Positions 7,449-50,447 are shown, numbered from the stretch's first letter. The stretch: 64,000 nucleotides of DNA from an uncultured bacterium (GCA_964565925.1 CAZMGV010000006.1:128997-192996), one strand, 5' to 3'. The notes: generated from the letters alone by a model not told the origin. Numbers and translations are program-made.

Positions 7449-8222
7449 TTAATTTCCGTTCGGCACCCTCGCCGCACTCCAGGTCCCGCGGCGCAGTCCG
7501 GGGGCGAGGGTGATCCAGGTCCCGGCGAGCAGGGCCGAATCATCGTTCAGGGTGGCTTCGATGGTTCCCGCAAAGCCGTCGCCGGTCCGCGCGCGCCACA
7601 GATAACCCGTGGATCCGCCGGTATGAGCGATATTAGCCGGCTCGCCGAACACCGGCACCGACTGTCGCGGTCCGCCGAAAACACCGTGAAGAGTTCCGTC
7701 GGCGGCAATGACGACGCCGATCACACCGGCGGAATCCCCGTCGACCGCTCCCAGGTATACCGAACTGCCGGTGACGGACGCACCGCTCAAGGCACCGGAG
7801 CGCAAAATTTCGGGGTGCTTTCCGGCGGCGGCATTGTCGCTGATCTCTCCGGTAACGATTCCGGCGGACGTAATCTCGCCGGTGGCCGATATCTGCGAAC
7901 CGTCAGCCGTCAATACGAACGATCGTCCGGCGGCGGTACCGGAAAGGCGGTAACTGGTCTCTTCGCCGGATGGGGAGCGGGCCGTCAGGGTGCCCGAAAG
8001 AATACCGTCCGCGCCGACGTCGAACGATCCGCTCGCCAGAGACCAGTCTCCGTCCGGACCGCCCAGGCTGGACCGGCCCGAAAGAGTTGCCACGAATGCG
8101 TAAGAGGCCGGGGCGGAACCGGCAGGGAGGTCCGCCCGGGCCGAAATCGCGAAAAGGGCAAACAGGAGCGCCAGACCGGCTCCCGGGAGCGTAATCGGCC
8201 GCCGGATTTTTGCTCTCCCCAT
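7449..8222 (-). CDS. Secreted Gly/Ser/Thr-rich hypothetical protein
   Basis: Starts at the internal Met with a classic signal peptide (MGRAKIRRPITLPGAGLALLFALFAISARA). Low-complexity G/S/T/A-rich mature region. Confidence 0.5.
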   Translation of the reverse strand: MGRAKIRRPITLPGAGLALLFALFAISARADLPAGSAPASYAFVATLSGRSSLGGPDGDWSLASGSFDVGADGILSGTLTARSPSGEETSYRLSGTAAGRSFVLTADGSQISATGEITSAGIVTGEISDNAAAGKHPEILRSGALSGASVTGSSVYLGAVDGDSAGVIGVVIAADGTLHGVFGGPRQSVPVFGEPANIAHTGGSTGYLWRARTGDGFAGTIEATLNDDSALLAGTWITLAPGLRRGTWSAARVPNGN

Positions 8223-8361
8223 CGCGAACTCCCGAATCCTGTTTCCCAAAAGAGTATCACCGTCTCCGAAACCGGCGTGTGATACGTCTCCCGCAGGGCG
8301 ACAAAAAACGGGCGGCCCGAGAGCCGCCCGTTTGATGTTGAACAATCCGGCGCGCGGTTAT

Positions 8362-8412
8362 TTCTTCGCGGCCTTCGCCTTCTTTTCCCCAAGCCTTTCG
8401 GCGATGGCGGCC
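8362..8412. repeat. 51-bp direct repeat, copy A (duplicate of ppdK 3' end)
   Basis: TTCTTCGCGGCCTTCGCCTTCTTTTCCCCAAGCCTTTCGGCGATGGCGGCC is identical to 9197-9247. On the minus strand it reads ...AAIAERLGEKKAKAAKK-stop, the ppdK C-terminus. Confidence 0.85.
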
Positions 8413-8413
8413 C

Positions 8414-8810
8414 TCACCGCCCGGCAAATGCTTTGAGCCGTGCAGCGATCTCCGCCTTGTCGGAGAGGCGTCCCTCAGCCACGGCAATGGTGAGGTCGTA
8501 CAGTTCGTCGTCGGAAGCCGACAGACGGATTCCGTTCAATCCCAGAAAAACAGTTGCACAGAGGAGTCCCGCCCGTTTGTTGCCATCCACGAACGGGTGG
8601 TTCTTTACGATGTGAAACAGGTAGGCCGCGGCCATCAGGTACAGGTCGCCATGGACGTATTCGCCACCGAAGGAAGCCTCGGGCTGCGCCAGCGCGGATT
8701 CGAGCAGCCCACGGTCGCGGATGCCGTCAGCGCCGCCGAACCGGGAAAGCTGCCGGGCATGAAGCCTGAGGGCGAGATCGAGGCTGATGAAGCGGAAGTT
8801 CAACGGGCAA
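8414..8810 (-). CDS. doc: Type II toxin, Doc/Fic (death-on-curing) family
   Basis: HPFVDGNKRAG Fic/Doc motif. N-terminus ...ISLDLALRLHARQLSRFGGADGIRDRGLLESALAQP is typical of Doc. Probable TTG start overlaps the antitoxin stop. Confidence 0.8.
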
Positions 8811-9033
8811 GTTTTTTGAAAGCCGATTCGTGCCGGTCCATGATTTCGTCGGCGATCTTGAGCGCCTCGTCTTCCATGGACTGCTGCCGCTGAACGACGA
8901 TCAGACGGCCGCCGGTTTCCTCGACGTCCAGAGCGGTTCCGGGTTTGGCATTGAGGGCGTCGAGCACCGGACCTGTCAGCATGACTGCCGGGCCTTCCCG
9001 AGTCTCGATGATTTTCGCCTTGATCGTCGCCAT
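8800..9033 (-). CDS. Antitoxin, AbrB/MazE/Phd-like (SpoVT-AbrB fold)
   Basis: 77-aa ORF immediately upstream of and overlapping the Doc toxin, in the same orientation. Small acidic C-terminus typical of antitoxins. Confidence 0.65.
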   Translation of the reverse strand: MATIKAKIIETREGPAVMLTGPVLDALNAKPGTALDVEETGGRLIVVQRQQSMEDEALKIADEIMDRHESAFKKLAR

Positions 9034-9192
9034 GGTCCGCTCCGGAGCCTCTGCTCCCGTAACAGCAAGAATAGCACAACCGGGCGGGAGAGGGATATGG
9101 GCAGTATGGCCTGGCCGGAACAGCCGGACTGGCCCGCCCCGGCAGGGGCGGAGGTTAGTCCAGACGCTTGCGGCGCGTCCGTTCCGCGTTTT

Positions 9193-11991
9193 CTACTTCT
9201 TCGCGGCCTTCGCCTTCTTTTCCCCAAGCCTTTCGGCGATGGCGGCCTGCGCCGCGGCGAGCCGGGCGATCGGCACGCGGAAGGGCGAACAGCTGACGTA
9301 GTCGAGTCCCAGCCGGTGGCAGAACTTGACCGACTCGGGATCGCCGCCGTGCTCGCCGCAGATGCCGAGCTTGATGCCGGGACGCACGCTGCGGCCCAGC
9401 TCCGAGGCGATCTTCATCAGCTTGCCCACGCCCGGCTGGTCGATCGTGACGAACGGGTCGGCCTTGTAGAGATTGCTCTCCAGATAGGCCGGCAGGAACC
9501 GCCCCGCGTCGTCGCGCGAGAGCCCCATGGTCGTCTGGGTGAGATCATTGGTGCCGAACGAGAAAAACTCCGCCTCTTTCGCGATCTCGTCGGCGACAAT
9601 CGCCGCGCGCGGCAGCTCGATCATCGTGCCGACCAGGAACGGGATCCGTGTGCCCTTCTCGCGGTTCACCTCGTGGGCCACGTCGATCACGTTCTTCTTC
9701 AGCATGGCGAACTCGCCCGCGTCGGAGATAATCGGGAGCATGATCTCGGGCGTGACTTTGAGGCCTTCTTCCTTCAGCAGATCCACGGCGGCTTCGATCA
9801 CCGCGCGGGTCTGCATGTTGAAGATCTCCGGGTACACCACCGCGAGGCGCGAGCCGCGGAAGCCCAGCATCGGGTTGAACTCGTGCAGGCTCTCCACCTT
9901 CGCCTTGATGCGGGAGAACGGCTCGCCCAGCTCCTTGGCGAGCAGTTCCATCTCGGCGTCCGTGTGGGGCAGGAATTCATGGAGCGGCGGGTCCAGGAAA
10001 CGGATCGTCACGGGATACGGCGCCATGGCGCGGAAAATCCCCTTGAAGTCGCCCTTCTGCATGGGGAGCAGCTTGGCCAGCGCGTTCTCGCGCGCCTGCC
10101 GGTCGTCGGCGAGGATCATCTCGCGCATGGCGAGAATCCGGTCCGCCTGGAAGAACATATGTTCCGTGCGGCACAGGCCGATCCCCTCCGCGCCGAAGCG
10201 GCGCGCCTGGTCGGAATCGGCCGGGGTGTCGGCGTTGGTGCGGACCTTGAGGCGCCGCTCCTTGTCGACAAATTTCATGAACGCATGGAAGTCGGCCGAG
10301 AGTTCGGGCTCCATCGTCTCGAGCTTGCCGAGGATCACCTCGCCCGTGGAGCCGTTGAGCGACAGCCAGTCGCCTTCCTTCACCACGACTTCCTTGCCGT
10401 TTGCACGCGCGATGAACTGCATCTTTGCATAGTCGATTTCGATGGCCGAGCAGCCGGCCACGCAGCACTTGCCCATGCCGCGCGCCACCACCGCCGCGTG
10501 CGAGGTGCGGCCGCCGCGGGCGGTCAGGATTCCTTCCGACACCGTCATGCCGCCGATGTCCTCCGGCGACGTCTCGATGCGGACCAGGATGACCGGTTCG
10601 CCCAGATCCTTCTGGTGCTGGGCGTCGGCGGCCGAGAACACCACCTTGCCGACGGCGGCGCCGGGGGAGGCATTGAGCCCCTTGGCGATCACCTTCTTTT
10701 CCGCCTTCGGGTCGAACCGCCGGTGGAGCAGGTGGTCCAGCTGTTCCGGGTGCACGCGGAGCACCGCCTCGGCCGGCGTGATCAGTTTTTCGCGCGCCAT
10801 GTCCACGGCGATCTTGATCGCCGCCTGCGCCGTGCGCTTACCGTTGCGGGTCTGGAGCATGTAGAGACGGCCGTGTTCGATGGTGAACTCGATGTCCTGC
10901 ATGTCGCGGTAGTGCTTTTCGAGCTTCTGGTAGATCCTGACCAGTTCCTTGTACGCCTTCGGCATCACCTCTTCGAGGGACACCTGGTCGGCGCTCTCCT
11001 TGCCGGCGATGTTAATGGGCTCCGGCGTGCGGATACCCGCCACCACGTCCTCGCCCTGCGCGTTCACGAGGTATTCGCCGAAGAACCGGCGGTCGCCGTT
11101 CGACGGGTCGCGTGTGAACGCGACGCCCGTGGCGCAGTCGTCCCCCAGGTTGCCGAACACCATCGACTGCACGTTCACGGCGGTGCCGCCGGCGGCCGAA
11201 ATGTTGTTGAGCTTGCGGTAGATCTTCGCGCGGTCGTTCTCCCACGAGTTGAACACGGCGCTGATCGCGCCCCAGAGCTGCTCCTCGGGGTCGGTGGGGA
11301 AATGGTTGCCCGTGCGGTCCACGACCAGCCGCTTGAACCGCTCCACCAGCTCCTGCAGGTCGGAGATGTCCAGCTCCACGTCGAGCTTCACCTTGCGCTT
11401 GTGCTTGATGTCCTCGATGATCAGCTCGAACGGGTCGGCTTCCTTGTCGGACTGGGGCTTCATGCCCATCACCACGTCGCCGTACATCTGCACGAAACGC
11501 CGGTAGCTGTCCCACGCAAAGCGCGGGTTGCCCGAGTCGCTCGCGAGCCCCTCGACCGTCCTGTCCGAGAGCCCCAGGTTCAGGACGGTATCCATCATGC
11601 CCGGCATGGAGTCGCGCGCGCCCGAGCGTACGGAAAACAGCAGCGGTCTGGACGTCGAGCCGAAGCCGCGGCCCATGATCGCTTCCACACGCGCCACGGC
11701 GGAGGCCACCTGCCTGTTCAGTTCCTTGGGGTAGCGGCGTCCGTTGGCGTAGTACCAGCTGCAGACGGCGGTCGTGATCGTGAACCCCGGCGGCACCGGC
11801 AGGCCGAGGTTCATCATCTCGGCAAGCCCCGCGCCCTTGCCGCCCAGCAGTTCCTTCATGTCGCCACGGCCGTCGGCCTTGCCGTTGCCGAAGAAGTAGA
11901 CGAGCTGCGACGTTTTGGACGCGCCCTTGGCGGCGGCAGGTTTGGCGGCGGCTTTCTTCTGGGAGGCGGGTTTTTTCATGCCAGTCTTCAT
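9193..11991 (-). CDS. ppdK: Pyruvate, phosphate dikinase
   Basis: 932-aa protein with full-length PPDK similarity (LLGGKGAGLAEM ... GGRTSHAAVVARGMGKCCVAGC ... CGEHGGDP). Lys/Ala-rich N-terminal extension. Confidence 0.95.
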   Translation of the reverse strand: MKTGMKKPASQKKAAAKPAAAKGASKTSQLVYFFGNGKADGRGDMKELLGGKGAGLAEMMNLGLPVPPGFTITTAVCSWYYANGRRYPKELNRQVASAVARVEAIMGRGFGSTSRPLLFSVRSGARDSMPGMMDTVLNLGLSDRTVEGLASDSGNPRFAWDSYRRFVQMYGDVVMGMKPQSDKEADPFELIIEDIKHKRKVKLDVELDISDLQELVERFKRLVVDRTGNHFPTDPEEQLWGAISAVFNSWENDRAKIYRKLNNISAAGGTAVNVQSMVFGNLGDDCATGVAFTRDPSNGDRRFFGEYLVNAQGEDVVAGIRTPEPINIAGKESADQVSLEEVMPKAYKELVRIYQKLEKHYRDMQDIEFTIEHGRLYMLQTRNGKRTAQAAIKIAVDMAREKLITPAEAVLRVHPEQLDHLLHRRFDPKAEKKVIAKGLNASPGAAVGKVVFSAADAQHQKDLGEPVILVRIETSPEDIGGMTVSEGILTARGGRTSHAAVVARGMGKCCVAGCSAIEIDYAKMQFIARANGKEVVVKEGDWLSLNGSTGEVILGKLETMEPELSADFHAFMKFVDKERRLKVRTNADTPADSDQARRFGAEGIGLCRTEHMFFQADRILAMREMILADDRQARENALAKLLPMQKGDFKGIFRAMAPYPVTIRFLDPPLHEFLPHTDAEMELLAKELGEPFSRIKAKVESLHEFNPMLGFRGSRLAVVYPEIFNMQTRAVIEAAVDLLKEEGLKVTPEIMLPIISDAGEFAMLKKNVIDVAHEVNREKGTRIPFLVGTMIELPRAAIVADEIAKEAEFFSFGTNDLTQTTMGLSRDDAGRFLPAYLESNLYKADPFVTIDQPGVGKLMKIASELGRSVRPGIKLGICGEHGGDPESVKFCHRLGLDYVSCSPFRVPIARLAAAQAAIAERLGEKKAKAAKK
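9197..9247. repeat. 51-bp direct repeat, copy B (native 3' end of ppdK)
   Basis: Identical to 8362-8412. Lies inside the ppdK coding sequence. Confidence 0.85.
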
Positions 11992-13532: not shown

Positions 13533-16500
13533 TTGCAGCAACTTAAGCAGATGAAACTTTATCCGGGATTATATGATCAATTGCTGACAAAGCAGTTGGA
13601 AGCGGAGGCGCTCGAACAGGGTTTCGATCTGCGCCTACGAGAGCTAGACAGTTCTTCTGCTCATGTCGTAATCGGCCAATATCTTGAAAGATTGCTCGCC
13701 CGTGCACTTTCAGTAATCCCCGAAGCGGATAGACCGGCGGCGCAGGTCACGTTAGCGAACGAAATTATTCGTTGGCTGTTGTCGAAGAAGCAGGATGGAC
13801 TTGTCGACGGAGACATTATCTCCGAAAAATCGACGCTCTTGGCGTCGGTCTCGGACGACAAGCCACCTTTGAGTGCTGAAGATTGTCCCCTGATTCCACT
13901 TAATACGTCGGAGCTGTTCGTCAACGGACGCAATGAACCTCGACTGGGAGAAGAGCTTCGTCGAGAGATTTTATCTGCAGACCGAATCGATTTACTGTGC
14001 GCGTTCGTCAAATGGTACGGATTGCGCGTTATTGAGGAACCACTCGCTGAATTTTTGCGAAGCGGCCGTGAACTCCGCCTGATCACAACGACCTATATGG
14101 GTGCCACAGAGCAAAAGCCGCTGGATTGGCTTTTTCAGCGAGACGCCAAAATAAAGGTATCATATGAGACGGAATCAACTCGTCTGCATGCCAAGGCGTG
14201 GCTGTTTCACAGAAATAGTGGCTCATCCACCGCGTATATTGGCAGTTCGAACTTATCGTATGCGGCTTTACTCGATGGCGTCGAATGGAACGTTCGGCTT
14301 TCGCAGCAAACATTGGGACCCGTCCTGAATAAGTTTCAGGCGACCTTCGACACTTACTGGAACGATACGCGGTACGAACTCTATGACGCTAAAAGATTCG
14401 CGCAGGCGACTGCGCGCGATCTTCAAGATAAGACGACTGAAATTAGCTTTCGATTGCTCGACGTCGATCCACGGCCCCATCAAAGGGAAATTCTCGATGC
14501 ACTCGAAGTTGAACGGTATCGTCACGGTCGTTGGAAGAATCTAGTTGTTGCTGCCACAGGTACCGGCAAGACGGTAATTGCAGCTCTGGACTACCGGCGT
14601 CTTCGTGAACAATTACCGCGTGCCAATTTGCTGTTTGTTGCTCATCGAAAAGAGATTCTTACTCAAAGCCTCAGAATGTTCCGAGACGTATTGCGTGACG
14701 GCTCGTTTGGAGAGCTTTACGTTGACGGAAAACGGCCTGAACAGTGGTCCAATGTATTTGCTTCAATTCAGTCGTTGACAGCCCAATCTATCGACCGCAT
14801 TGATCCACATCACTTTGATGTTCTTATCGTTGACGAGTTCCATCACGCGGCAGCGAAATCATACGAAACGTTACTAAATAGGCTTAGGCCCAAAGTCCTT
14901 TTGGGCCTTACGGCGACGCCAGAACGGGGCGATGGTGAAAGCATCCTTCATTGGTTCGACGATCGTATTGCCGCTGAATTAAGAATCTGGGACGCGCTGG
15001 AACAAGATCTTCTCATCCCATTTCAATACTTTGGGATTCACGATGATGTGGACTTAGAAAAATTGTCATGGAAACGAGGCGGTTACGATCTCTCAGAACT
15101 GAGCAATCTGTATACGAATAACGACAGTCGGGTCGCCAAAATTCTACAGCAAATGGCTCGCATCGTACCGAATGTCGCAAAAATGAAAGCGCTCGGATTT
15201 TGTGTGAGCATTGATCACGCGAAGTTCATGGCGAAGAAGTTTTCAGAAGCCGGCGTTCCCTCAGTGGCGATCGTTTCGGAAGGCTCTTCGGCAAATAGAG
15301 ATGAGGCAATTGCTGATCTCAAGCGCAGAGATGGAAAGATTCGGACGATCTTTTGCGTCGATATTTTCAACGAAGGTGTAGATATACCAGCGGTTGATAC
15401 CGTCTTGATGTTGCGTCCAACCGAAAGTCCAACGGTGTTTCTGCAGCAACTCGGACGAGGGTTACGTCGGCATCCTGAAAAGGCGTGCTTAACGGTTTTG
15501 GATTTCATTGGAAACCAAAATCGAAAGTTTCGGTTTGATCAAAGATTCTCAGCGTTGATTGGGTGTAAGCGTAGAGACGTTGCCGAACATGTTGAGCAGG
15601 GTTTCCCGTTTTTGCCTGCTGGTTGCCATATCGATCTTGACCGAGATGTTTCTCGAATTGTCCTCGAAAATCTTAAGCAGACTATAGAAACCAAGAACAG
15701 GTTGGTACAAGAACTTAAAGATATTGGTGATGTCTCATTGCTCGAATTTATCCGGAAAAGTGGGGTCGATGTTGAGGACATCTATCGGAGCAATCGAAAT
15801 TATAGGATTCTTCGACAGTTGGCTGGCTTCCCAACGGAGCCTGATGGTGAATTCGAAGATGAACTGGGCCGTTCGATTGGCCGCCTTCTACATAACGACG
15901 ATGTAGTTCGAGTGGGGCTCTATCGGAAAATACTGTCCGAAAAATCACCACCCAAGGTAAATACGTTCTCAAAAACGGAGCGCCGGTCACTTCATATGCT
16001 TCACTTCATGCTTTGGGGCGTGAAGCGAAAATGGCCGTCTATTGATGAAGCATTCGTGACTCTGTGGAAGCACAAAAACGTATTGAAGGAACTGAGTGAA
16101 CTGTTCGAATTGCTAGACGAGAAGGCTGAGATTCTGACAAAGCCACTTCCGGAGTTGAGCGAAAGTCCGATCCAACTTTATGGACGATATGACCGCGCGG
16201 AAATTCGTGCCGCTTTTGATAGGCTCGACGTCGAAAAGCCGTATGCCCATCAAGAAGGTTGTGAATGGATTGAATCGTTTAACGCAGATATCTTTTTTGT
16301 GACCCTTAGAAAGAATGAAAAAGGCTTTACGGCGACGACTCTTTATAACGACTTCGCGGTTAGTCCGGAAGAATTTCATTGGGAGTCGCAATCACGCACG
16401 GCGGAGAAGAGCCCAACAGGGCAACGATATATCCACCACGCGAAACGCGGTAGTCGGATATTGTTATTCGTCAGGGAAACAAAGACGGACCCTTTCGTTG

Positions 16501-16619
16501 CGCTTGGCCCTGCGGAATACGTGAGTCACGAATCCGAACGGCCCATGAAGATTATCTGGAAGATGAAGTACCCGATTCCTGAATTCCTCTTGAAGTCGGC
16601 GACCGTCGTCGCGGCGTAA
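13533..16619 (+). CDS. PLD/HKD-like nuclease - SF2 (ResIII/DEAH) helicase - DUF3427-like fusion protein (candidate restriction/defence protein)
   Basis: 1028 aa. HKD-like motif RLHAKAWLFH...GSSN (about aa 219-240). Walker A AATGTGKT (about aa 340-347). DEFH box (about aa 434-437). Helicase motif VI QQLGRGLRR. About 300-aa C-terminal region resembling DUF3427. The gene is visibly lower-GC than its flanks. Confidence 0.85.
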   Translation: MQQLKQMKLYPGLYDQLLTKQLEAEALEQGFDLRLRELDSSSAHVVIGQYLERLLARALSVIPEADRPAAQVTLANEIIRWLLSKKQDGLVDGDIISEKSTLLASVSDDKPPLSAEDCPLIPLNTSELFVNGRNEPRLGEELRREILSADRIDLLCAFVKWYGLRVIEEPLAEFLRSGRELRLITTTYMGATEQKPLDWLFQRDAKIKVSYETESTRLHAKAWLFHRNSGSSTAYIGSSNLSYAALLDGVEWNVRLSQQTLGPVLNKFQATFDTYWNDTRYELYDAKRFAQATARDLQDKTTEISFRLLDVDPRPHQREILDALEVERYRHGRWKNLVVAATGTGKTVIAALDYRRLREQLPRANLLFVAHRKEILTQSLRMFRDVLRDGSFGELYVDGKRPEQWSNVFASIQSLTAQSIDRIDPHHFDVLIVDEFHHAAAKSYETLLNRLRPKVLLGLTATPERGDGESILHWFDDRIAAELRIWDALEQDLLIPFQYFGIHDDVDLEKLSWKRGGYDLSELSNLYTNNDSRVAKILQQMARIVPNVAKMKALGFCVSIDHAKFMAKKFSEAGVPSVAIVSEGSSANRDEAIADLKRRDGKIRTIFCVDIFNEGVDIPAVDTVLMLRPTESPTVFLQQLGRGLRRHPEKACLTVLDFIGNQNRKFRFDQRFSALIGCKRRDVAEHVEQGFPFLPAGCHIDLDRDVSRIVLENLKQTIETKNRLVQELKDIGDVSLLEFIRKSGVDVEDIYRSNRNYRILRQLAGFPTEPDGEFEDELGRSIGRLLHNDDVVRVGLYRKILSEKSPPKVNTFSKTERRSLHMLHFMLWGVKRKWPSIDEAFVTLWKHKNVLKELSELFELLDEKAEILTKPLPELSESPIQLYGRYDRAEIRAAFDRLDVEKPYAHQEGCEWIESFNADIFFVTLRKNEKGFTATTLYNDFAVSPEEFHWESQSRTAEKSPTGQRYIHHAKRGSRILLFVRETKTDPFVALGPAEYVSHESERPMKIIWKMKYPIPEFLLKSATVVAA

Positions 16620-16999: not shown

Positions 17000-17154
17000 C
17001 CCCCGTTCAAACCCTTCGATCCATTCGAGACGCGCATATGGTTCGACGGCGCTCACCACGAACGGCGCTCCTCAGGGCGAACGGGAGTGCCCCGAAGCGG
17101 CGGGTGAGTCCAGTACATAACATAAACGTCAACCTCCGCTTTTTAATAAAACCC

Positions 17155-17178
17155 CCCAAATGGCCCTAAATGACCCAA
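17155..17178. repeat. Left arm of ~22-bp inverted repeat (CCAAATGGCCCTAAATGACCCAAG)
   Basis: Reverse complement of 17420-17443 (CTTGGGTCATTTAGGGCCATTTGG-like). Confidence 0.7.
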
Positions 17179-17400
17179 GCCCGATTCCTGGGCAACATGG
17201 GCTAACCCCGCGCCGGCGCTCGGGAATCCGGCAGATTCCAAAACTTGTGTCACGTTAATCAAAAAATATTTTGGCGGCTGTTAAGGGGGTCGGCTCCGGC
17301 GGGGAAATCCGGAGATTCCGCTGCGTGATCCGCAAGTTGGACCGTCAGAATTAAGGCCTTAACTACCGTCGCTAGATTCTCAAAAAACCGTGCGCGCTTG

Positions 17401-17443
17401 GGTCATTTAGGCTCGTTTAGGGTCATTTAGGGCCATTTAGGTT
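17401..17443. repeat. Four tandem 10-bp repeats (GGYCRTTTAG, period 10 bp) forming the right arm of the inverted repeat
   Basis: GGTCATTTAG / GCTCGTTTAG / GGTCATTTAG / GGCCATTTAG at 17401-17440. The units are one helical turn apart. Confidence 0.7.
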
Positions 17444-17801
17444 CACCCCCTTACGTCGCCCCATTTCGCTCGCTAACAATAGTCACATGGGAAATCCGTA
17501 CTCCATACCCGCCGACCTCAGGGACGACCCGTCCGCTTACCGGGATGACTACCCGGTCTCTTCTACGGGCGGTGTTACGGCCGGTACGGTCGTCCCGTTC
17601 CCTTCGCCGCAGGGCAGCGCGAGGCAGAGCTATAACGGCGCGTTCGCGAGCGGCCGGCGGTGGGTGCGAGCGCGGGTCAATGTGGAACCCGAGTGGTCGA
17701 GCCCCCGTGTGGCTGGAAAAATCTGGAACTGCGCGACGGCCCGCACGATTGTCTCACCCGTCGAGCGCGACACGGTGAGCCGGGCGGTGGGGGGACTGTT
17801 C

Positions 17802-49028: not shown

Positions 49029-50447
49029 TTGACGTCCGGTGGACTCTGGAACCGGAACGCGGCGGATCGTGTGGCCCGTATCCTCGTCGTCGATGACGAT
49101 CCCAACTTCCTGAAACTCGTAACCGAGCATTTGCGCGCCGACGGCCACGAAACCGTCACGGCCTCGAACGGTATCGAAGGTCTTTCGCGCTACACACCGG
49201 AAATCGACTGCGTCGTTTCCGACGTCCAGATGCCCGAGATGGACGGCCTCGAACTGCTCCAGTCGCTGCGCGAGCGAAACCCCGCGCTGCCGGTCATCAT
49301 GCTCACCGCGCAGACAACCGCCGACGCCGCCGTTCAGGCGCTCCGTCACGGCGCACGCGATTACATATTCAAGACAGACCTGCAGCGGCTCCCCACGACC
49401 GTTAAAAACGCAGTCTCGCACCGGCGGCTCGAAAACCGCGTGGACCAGCTCGAATCGGCGGCACGGGAAAAATTTTCGCTGCGGAACATCGTCGGCCGTT
49501 CGTCCCAGATGAACGCCGTCTTCGAGGCGCTCGAGCGCGTCGTGTCGTCGAACGTGACCGTGCTCGTGCAGGGGGAAAGCGGCACCGGCAAGGAACTGCT
49601 CGCCAAGGCCATTCACTTCAATTCGGCGCGGTCAAAAGGACCGTTCATCGCTATTAACTGCGCGGCGATTCCGGAAAACCTGATCGAGAGCGAGCTGTTC
49701 GGCCACGAGAAAGGCGCCTTCACCGGCGCCGTCAACCGCCGTATCGGCCGCATAGAGCAGGCCAACGGAGGCACGCTGTTCCTGGACGAGATCGGCGAAA
49801 TGAACCTGAACCTTCAGGCCAAGTTGCTGCGCGTGCTCCAGGAGCGAACGCTGGAGCGCGTGGGCGGTTCCGATACCGTGAAGGTGGATGTGCGCGTGGT
49901 GGCGGCGACCCACCGGCGGCTGGACGAAATGGTCCGTGCCGGACAGTTCCGCGAGGATCTCTTTTACCGGCTCAACGTTTTTCCGATCCGGATCCCGCCG
50001 CTCCGGGAACGGCGTGACGACGTCGTGCCGCTGGCGGAGCATTTTCTCGCCAAGTTCAACCGCGAGGAGGGCCGGACGCTGAAAGGTTTCTCGCCCGATG
50101 CGACCGAGATCCTTCTCAGCCACAACTATCCGGGCAACGTCCGCGAACTGGAAAATCTCGTCTACCGGACGGCACTGCTCTCCAGAAGCGAATGGATCGG
50201 CGCCCAGGATGTACCGCCGTTCGGTTCGGCGGGAGCGGAAACCCCGGTTCAACCCGCCGTCCACGCGGCCGGTACCGGCGCCCAGTGGAGCCGCGAGCAG
50301 TTTCCCAAACTGGTGGATCTGGAAAAAACTGCCTGTCAGAAAGCGCTCGATCTGGCGGAAGGGAACGTTACCGAAGCGGCCGATCTGCTCGGTATTGGCA
50401 AGGCGACGCTCTACCGCAAGATCAAGGAATATGAACTGAAAGCCTGA
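49029..50447 (+). CDS. Sigma-54-dependent response regulator (PilR-like)
   Basis: REC ([10 protein letters not shown]...), [21 protein letters not shown], and a C-terminal HTH. The start is either TTG 49029 or GTG 49071. Confidence 0.85.

Follow-up and report, generated by a model that had tools for sequence, protein, structure and literature searches.

Why does the 3' end of a housekeeping gene stand twice in a chromosome, once at the end of the gene itself and once behind a toxin gene? The question is raised by a stretch of 64,000 nucleotides from an uncultured bacterium (GCA_964565925.1, CAZMGV010000006.1:128997-192996), called the window below, in which 51 bp from the very end of ppdK, the gene for pyruvate, phosphate dikinase, are found again directly after the gene of a Doc toxin, the two copies enclosing a small toxin-antitoxin (TA) cassette. 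The answer favoured here, with a confidence that is about even, is that the repeat is the scar of a recent one-sided homologous insertion, or gene-tip displacement, between cassette-bearing and cassette-free alleles of close relatives.

Anatomy of the repeat

The 51-mer, TTCTTCGCGGCCTTCGCCTTCTTTTCCCCAAGCCTTTCGGCGATGGCGGCC, occurs at 8362-8412 and at 9197-9247, both on the + strand and with 0 mismatches, and the pair is the sole long perfect repeat within the 64 kb; in the shuffle control, such a match was found in 0 of 100 shuffles. This confirms the observation from which a first-pass annotation of the window started, namely that one copy is the true ppdK 3' terminus and the other follows right after Doc. 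The proximal copy (copy 2) covers the last 51 nt before the final base of ppdK, whose last codon is AAG (9198-9196) and whose stop is TAG (9195-9193). The distal copy (copy 1) starts 1 nt past the Doc stop (TGA, 8416-8414) and, read in the ppdK frame, encodes ...AAIAERLGEKKAKAAKK, followed by a lysine codon AAA and the stop TAA (8360-8358). Just past the repeat, copy 1 continues with AAA TAA and copy 2 with AAG TAG, both differences being silent, as is expected if both copies once were working ppdK ends of two alleles. Outside the 51-mer, there is no similarity on either side but the N-TA-N stop context, the scores being at shuffle level.

The interval between the copies measures 784 bp (835 bp together with one repeat) and, as the first-pass annotation had stated, holds only an antitoxin gene and a Fic/Doc toxin gene with the motif HPFVDGNKRAG: it consists of a 159-nt leader, a 77-aa antitoxin and a 129-aa Doc, and nothing else. 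In the direction of transcription, which is that of the minus strand throughout, the order is glyS, ppdK, leader, antitoxin, Doc, copy 1, terminator, an orphan gene and a radical SAM gene (Table 1). A tandem duplication, whether of the unit or of resident sequence alone, was ruled out, because the DNA past the distal copy (ATAA, spacer and terminator) contains no copy of what follows the proximal one.

The displaced native end of ppdK

Three related loci serve for comparison: L001, a Joint Genome Institute (JGI) metagenome contig from sample 3300028648 whose ppdK is 85% identical in nucleotides to that of the window; L083 (GCA_964621525.1), with a ppdK 87% identical in amino acids over its full length and 88% in amino acids and 86% in nucleotides over the last 2.2 kb; and L084 (GCA_026129095.1), with 85% amino acid and 81% nucleotide identity, its protein being labelled as from a 'Deltaproteobacteria bacterium' metagenome-assembled genome (MAG).

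Behind copy 1, an intrinsic terminator sits 26 nt beyond the stop TAA of the displaced tip and folds with a free energy (dG) of -25.5 kcal/mol (z = -4.6). Its motif (8308-8331) aligns with the hairpins that stand directly after ppdK in L083 and L084, with 87% identity to L083 over 31 nt by BLAST. The motif is unique in the 64-kb window, and on that account its match to the relatives as a generic motif was ruled out. Copy 1 has a stop of its own, and the terminator behind it matches in alignment those found after ppdK in L083 and L084; by these marks, copy 1 is the original ppdK end, and the copy now attached to ppdK is the one that arrived with the cassette. The geometry proposed by the first-pass annotation, with the ppdK 3' end regenerated, was right in this respect, and copy 1, the displaced native end, keeps both its stop and a native-type terminator.

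Regarding the leader that now follows ppdK, it contains a GC hairpin without a U tract (z = -1.4), which is not a canonical terminator. Thus, ppdK now has no canonical terminator of its own and would be co-transcribed with the cassette, both presumably terminating jointly at the displaced native terminator.

Age of the cassette and age of the repeat

In L001, ppdK is followed, about 10 nt after its stop, by a homologous leader, then by a 77-aa antitoxin and a Doc 78% identical to that of the window; there is no second tip copy after doc, and a possible relic of the spacer, CGGCCTGA, lies shortly after it. L083 keeps only the last 33 doc codons (82% nucleotide identity to the window), with a complete ppdK terminator on one side and the radical SAM gene on the other. 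The terminator lies there at 10787-10816 and the doc remnant at 10836-10934, followed at 10953-10975 by a segment with a 12-nt copy of the terminator right arm (GGCCGCCCGTTC), a layout that looks like partial replacement of the cassette by cassette-free-type DNA. Meanwhile, L084, which is the outgroup in the ppdK-identity tree, (L084,(window,(L001,L083))), has no cassette between ppdK and the radical SAM gene. At four-fold sites, the identity between the window and L001 is 0.53 in doc and 0.65 in ppdK. Because the cassette occupies the same site in L001, has left a remnant in L083 and has a silent divergence in doc at least as high as that of ppdK, it is old at this locus; judging from these comparisons, its link with ppdK predates the split of the window, L001 and L083 lineages, and the cassette is no newcomer.

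The repeat is of a different age. It encodes the tail IAERLGEKKAKAAKK, which is found in the window only, all three relatives having a shorter ...V(N/E)EK..KKK tail. With its 51/51 identity, sharp edges and lineage-specific tail, the duplication is therefore later than the lineage split, and young, and consequently it cannot have been left by the first arrival of the cassette, unless the copies were kept alike by gene conversion. The first-pass annotation had taken the repeat for the mark of that arrival, which the presence of the cassette in L001 and of its remnant in L083, next to a young repeat, does not bear out. None of the relatives carries the 51-bp duplication, and the contrary case that the annotation had named, with a diverged duplication in all relatives, was accordingly not encountered. 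A metagenome scan with a 28-mer of the repeat gave 0 matches, and one with the L001/L083-type tail recovered L001 alone. When genome contigs were searched with the ppdK C-terminus, the PPDKs among the matches listed had at most 67% identity and came from unrelated phyla.

The same arrangement could also result from an old duplication, in which the cassette entered the common ancestor of the window, L001 and L083 and duplicated the ppdK tip, gene conversion kept the window copies identical, and the distal copy disappeared from the two relatives; a deletion from repeat to repeat would then be penalised, as the antitoxin gene would go. The cassette does stand at the same site in three lineages, the possible spacer relic after doc in L001 fits an insertion right at the ppdK end, and mismatches are confined to the outer edge of the repeat, as edge erosion predicts. 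However, the distal tip copy is present in none of the relatives, and the inner edge is uneroded, with 51/51 identity to be set against a neutral-site divergence of about 35-47% between the lineages. In addition, the lineage-specific tail, longer by 15 nt, would have to be copied into a non-functional relic, and gene conversion on a 51-bp tract over such a time is demanding. An old duplication is thus regarded as unlikely.

Proposed route of the insertion

Given that the cassette is old at the locus, the recent insertion would be an exchange of alleles among close relatives rather than a first arrival. The incoming segment would derive from a cassette-bearing close relative, in the order ppdK tip, TAG, leader, antitoxin and doc, and would meet a conspecific, cassette-free chromosome carrying the native ppdK tip, TAA, spacer and terminator, the homology used being the ppdK tip itself. 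Two routes can be considered. In a Campbell-type route, a circularised 835-bp fragment would enter through one crossover of the RecA type inside the 51-bp homology. In the second, known as homology-facilitated illegitimate recombination, a longer linear fragment would be joined by homologous exchange inside ppdK on one side and by an illegitimate joint just past the doc stop on the other, probably at a short GGCC microhomology. Both routes would lead to the same product, in which ppdK is intact with the incoming tip, and the resident tip, its stop and its terminator lie untranslated behind doc, and in neither would a dedicated recombinase take part.

The donor-type linkage that this exchange calls for exists, as in L001 ppdK is directly followed by the leader, the antitoxin and doc, and L083 keeps a remnant. 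The pattern of such a scar is also found in the window, where a duplication of the shared segment bounds the insert and the resident distal sequence is intact downstream. Concerning the joint, GGCC lies 2 nt past TGAG at the doc end in both L001 and L083, and the window repeat starts with GGCC, which suggests a possible microhomology joint at this place.

Several points weigh against such an exchange. A length of 51 bp is near the lower limit for a RecA-dependent crossover, an illegitimate joint just 1 nt past the doc stop needs luck or selection for an intact operon, and homology-facilitated illegitimate recombination usually gives deletions, not duplications (PMC3240628). Within the lineage of the window itself, no genome without the cassette was found, and the partner allele is thus a reconstruction, in a lineage that is nearly unsampled (four related loci in all, and 0 metagenome matches for the repeat). 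Moreover, the terminator to the left of the doc remnant in L083 cannot simply be derived from the window arrangement, so the history of the locus is reconstructed in part. Finally, the source is most likely a MAG, in which the joint between doc and the repeat is known from the assembled contig.

The last point leads to the question of an assembly artefact, that is, a chimera of two co-existing strains, with and without the cassette, threaded through the 51-mer. Besides the apparent MAG origin, a Logan contig (L091, from SRR14271333 and shared by a second run) could be read in this way: it starts with the last 30 nt of the repeat and independently reproduces the sequence through ATAA, the terminator and the orphan 257-aa gene. 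As its start falls at a branch of the k=31 graph, the repeat is continued in that read set in both ways (ATAA and GTAG), a branch that is compatible with the repeat structure and is also expected from a mixture of strains or alleles. However, the path from doc into the repeat requires joint-spanning k-mers, which a simple two-strain mixture would not contain, and the 64 kb hold no second repeat of this kind. Moreover, 51 is not known to be a default k or k-1 of common metagenome assemblers, which also counts against an artefact. This explanation is considered very improbable.

Mobility functions and other scars at the locus

A gene end restored in front of an insert recalls the islands that integrases place in tRNA genes, and the unit could accordingly be the remnant or the non-autonomous passenger of a site-specific element, with a lost or trans-acting integrase, an attachment (att) site in the ppdK 3' end and a replacement tip like that of tRNA-targeting islands. 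The layout is indeed similar to attL/attR, with the target 3' end regenerated and the native end displaced, and in the relatives, insertions have recurred at the ppdK 3' boundary. However, there is no recombinase in the 835-bp unit, whose 784-bp interior holds the two TA genes only, and no integrase, transposase or recombinase domain was found in the open reading frames of window positions 1-44 kb. No terminal inverted repeats pair the ends of the insert, and the window has no tRNA and no Rfam matches; a tRNA-linked island or a structured RNA was ruled out for this reason.

The other Doc-family loci do not fit such an element either. Five further ones (L086-L090), 64-71% identical, lie in two unrelated genomic contexts, and flanking repeats were seen in 0 of the 4 with enough flank, L087 being left out with 86 nt downstream. 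The cassette of L001 likewise has no distal repeat, and the divergence of the cassette fits long residence, not repeated re-entry.

Further scars are present at the boundary itself. In L084, a block of three genes (DUF4423, a 295-aa gene and a 303-aa gene) between ppdK and the radical SAM gene is bounded by a 38-bp direct repeat, 89% identical, at 10781-10818 and 13813-13850. This repeat corresponds to the ppdK spacer and the terminator stem, the U tract being on the distal copy alone. By its layout it is a second, older displaced-end scar, with the same geometry as that of the window and another segment duplicated. In L083, the doc remnant is directly adjoined by terminator DNA of the native type. 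There is no overlap among the duplicated segments, which comprise positions -51 to -1 before the stop in the window, spacer and terminator in L084, and the terminator right arm in L083. A single att core is therefore unlikely, and homology-driven or illegitimate joins at the border of conserved and variable DNA fit better. Taken together, these layouts mark the ppdK 3' boundary as a hot spot of recombination whose scars differ in position.

A site-specific element, with no core common to the three duplicated segments, is thus distinctly unlikely. Of the two mechanisms that the first-pass annotation had left side by side, homology-mediated integration is favoured, and the site-specific one lacks a recombinase (in 1-44 kb), a tRNA, terminal inverted repeats and a common core; a reading of the unit as a decayed or minimal site-specific island is not supported either, on the same grounds and because the four other Doc-family loci with enough flank are without repeats.

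Direct repeats that bound a short insert are also produced by transposition with target-site duplication, and TA pairs are common as integron cassettes, which would speak for an integron-type gene cassette. The parallel with integrons has been mentioned in the literature (PMC5361080). However, 51 bp is far longer than known target-site duplications, and chance would have to explain that the insert supplied a stop right behind copy 2. In addition, terminal inverted repeats are missing at the ends of the insert, neither a transposase nor intI was found in the scanned part of the window (1-44 kb), and the sequence after doc is not an attC-like site, as it is the ppdK tip and has no imperfect palindrome with R'/R'' cores. 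Both forms of this explanation are already largely refuted by the lack of terminal inverted repeats, transposase and attC, and are regarded as extremely improbable.

A more far-reaching reading is that the 835-bp unit acts as a minimal non-autonomous integrative cassette, which would spread as a circle among close relatives and use the 51-bp tip as a homology 'att' for host RecA or for an unlinked recombinase. If this were true, addiction would penalise loss between the repeats, and the duplications at the ppdK boundary of the relatives would be footprints of that process. This reading is judged quite improbable.

The toxin-antitoxin pair

The toxin is a clear member of its family, matching Pfam Fic (PF02661) at 2e-18 with 67.4 bits (cut-off 24) and NCBIfam TIGR01550 DOC_P1 with 59.1 bits (cut-off 38.65). 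Its catalytic motif HPFVDGNKRAG, of the HxFx(D/N)(A/G)NKR type, is intact and conserved in the homologues P0001-P0005. P0001 is identical to the Doc of the window, its listing at 99% reflecting a query begun one codon upstream of the TTG.

The antitoxin is less easily assigned. The first-pass annotation had called it AbrB/Phd-like; the Phd part falls away, since no Pfam family is matched at E <= 0.01 and hence no PhdYeFM, and for the AbrB part there are a best match to NCBIfam TIGR02609 doc_partner (27.1 bits, E = 4e-6, below the cut-off of 55.9) and a faint match to the AbrB domain (E = 0.017). The two-gene layout, with the antitoxin before doc, is also seen in L001 and L086-L090.

Regarding the control of the cassette, a leader block, AAGCGTCTGGACTAACCTCCGCCCCT, and a -10-like sequence, TGCTATTCT (about 9066-9080), are common to the window and L001, as found by BLAST and alignment. 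The 41-nt block over the start of the antitoxin gene is identical in both, compared to 36% protein and about 62% DNA identity for the rest of the antitoxin, and it may serve the cassette as an operator or in the control of translation. By analogy with characterised Doc toxins, the pair would be an ordinary type II system, in which EF-Tu would be the target inactivated by Doc, and neutralisation of Doc and repression of the operon would fall to a labile partner of the AbrB type.

Among plasmids, no DNA match was found, the best plasmid Doc being 56% identical, and viral contigs scanned with the conserved 5' block of the cassette gave 0 matches.

Neighbouring genes

The coordinates of the features are collected in Table 1.

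Table 1. Features around the ppdK 3' end in the 64-kb window.
Feature	Position	Strand	Remarks
glyS	13340-11988	-	
ppdK (pyruvate, phosphate dikinase, 932 aa)	9193-11991	-	Pfam PPDK_N, PEP-utilizers, PEP-utilizers_C; homologues carry the same name
Repeat copy 2, functional ppdK tip	9197-9247	-	Followed by G, then TAG
Cassette leader	9034-9192	-	159 nt, from ppdK stop to antitoxin gene
41-nt block (ribosome-binding site and first 9 antitoxin codons)	9007-9047	-	100% identical to L001
Antitoxin, 77 aa, probably AbrB or 'doc_partner' type	8800-9033	-	Stop TGA overlaps doc TTG
Doc/Fic toxin, 129 aa	8414-8803	-	TTG start overlaps antitoxin stop as TTGA
Repeat copy 1 + A + TAA, displaced, untranslated native ppdK tip	8358-8412	-	Repeat proper 8362-8412
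Native ppdK intrinsic terminator, now past the cassette	8300-8336	-	12-bp GC stem and U6
Orphan gene, 257 aa, signal-peptide-like N-terminus	7449-8222	-	Between terminator and AmmeMemoRadiSam radical SAM gene

The product of the orphan gene matches itself alone among 5.8 billion proteins and has no family match, and it is not homologous to that of the 303-aa gene which takes the corresponding position in L084. This gene belongs to the variable stretch and not to the cassette.

On the other side of glyS, a 1028-aa gene on the + strand (13533-16619) combines PLD-nuclease, ResIII/DEAD helicase and DUF3427 domains. Its GC content at third codon positions (GC3) is 0.49, compared to about 0.8-0.9 in its neighbours, and it is probably a horizontally acquired defence-type gene. 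At this position, L083 has Dcm methylase, Vsr, MvaI/BcnI and Abi_alpha genes, and L084 an HNH gene and DUF6883/DUF4926. As the defence-like genes differ among the relatives, the conserved glyS-ppdK pair has variable islets on both sides.

Two other repeat structures lie in the window. At 17147-17183 and 17393-17445, an AT-richer non-coding stretch carries about four tandem copies of a 10-nt unit (TCATTTAGGC/GGGTCATTTAGG), with an inverted copy about 210 nt upstream, in a pattern reminiscent of iterons or of terminal repeats. Positions 1657-2012 and 49488-49843 form a long imperfect inverted repeat with a complementarity of about 71%; since its first arm lies inside a sigma-54 response-regulator gene, the two regions are probably paralogous genes on opposite strands.

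Comparison with known systems

The locus is a clean natural example of a TA cassette linked to a housekeeping gene and apparently moved or re-inserted by means of the 3' end of that neighbour as homology, an event that left a displaced silent gene tip and parted ppdK from its terminator. It illustrates how chromosomal TA pairs may persist and spread among relatives without a dedicated mobility gene, and it calls for caution, because a duplicated gene end is not always an integrase att site. As a fresh instance of known processes, it opens no new mechanism and settles no outstanding question.

The cassette itself resembles phage P1 Phd/Doc and the chromosomal Doc modules with an AbrB partner, in having two small genes with stop/start overlap, the antitoxin first, and a toxin motif HxFx(D/N)GNKR. 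It differs in that its antitoxin is not of the PhdYeFM type, the nearest plasmid Doc is 56% identical, and the cassette lies in the chromosome of an uncultured lineage, the single labelled relative being called 'Deltaproteobacteria'.

Compared to the integrase islands at the 3' ends of tRNA and protein genes, bounded by attL and attR, the direct repeats around the insert and the element-proximal copy that restores the target 3' end are alike; however, the window has a 0.8-kb insert without integrase or conserved core, and its cassette is a long-standing resident.

Further parallels are offered by recombination with homology on one side. In Escherichia coli, most integrants obtained with one-sided homology are single crossovers of recircularised molecules, which duplicate 109-950 bp of homology (PMC3240628); homology-facilitated illegitimate recombination goes back to the work of de Vries and Wackernagel (2002) and Prudhomme et al. 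(2002), as cited in PMC3240628 and PMC5361080. In the latter process, one-sided homology serves as the anchor and the second joint forms illegitimately, in many cases at a microhomology of 3-10 bp; in the single crossover of a circle, the homologous segment is duplicated on either side of the insert, as in the window. The window differs from both in that its duplication is shorter (51 bp) and is deduced from a natural genome, and from the classical process, which gives deletions.

The scar also resembles the displacement of gene tips in Rhs, contact-dependent inhibition (CDI) and type VI secretion system (T6SS) loci. In the Rhs genes described by Jackson et al. (2009, PMC2935791), the C-terminal tips are moved downstream, for which a model with a circular intermediate was given, and Kirchberger et al. 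(2017, PMC5361080) proposed that T6SS effector modules displace older ones by homology-facilitated illegitimate recombination. The window differs from these loci in that its gene encodes a housekeeping enzyme, the old and new tips are the same peptide, with no functional diversification, and the cargo is a TA pair, where those loci have a toxin tip and an immunity gene; only 51 bp are shared, and there is one displaced tip and no array. Common to all of them is a conserved upstream segment that occurs both in the resident gene and in the DNA that enters. The 3' end of the resident gene is shifted to a silent downstream place, short repeats of the conserved segment bound the newcomer, and the same two routes are candidates. 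The ppdK locus widens the tip-displacement pattern, described for loci of polymorphic toxins, to include a gene of ordinary metabolism.

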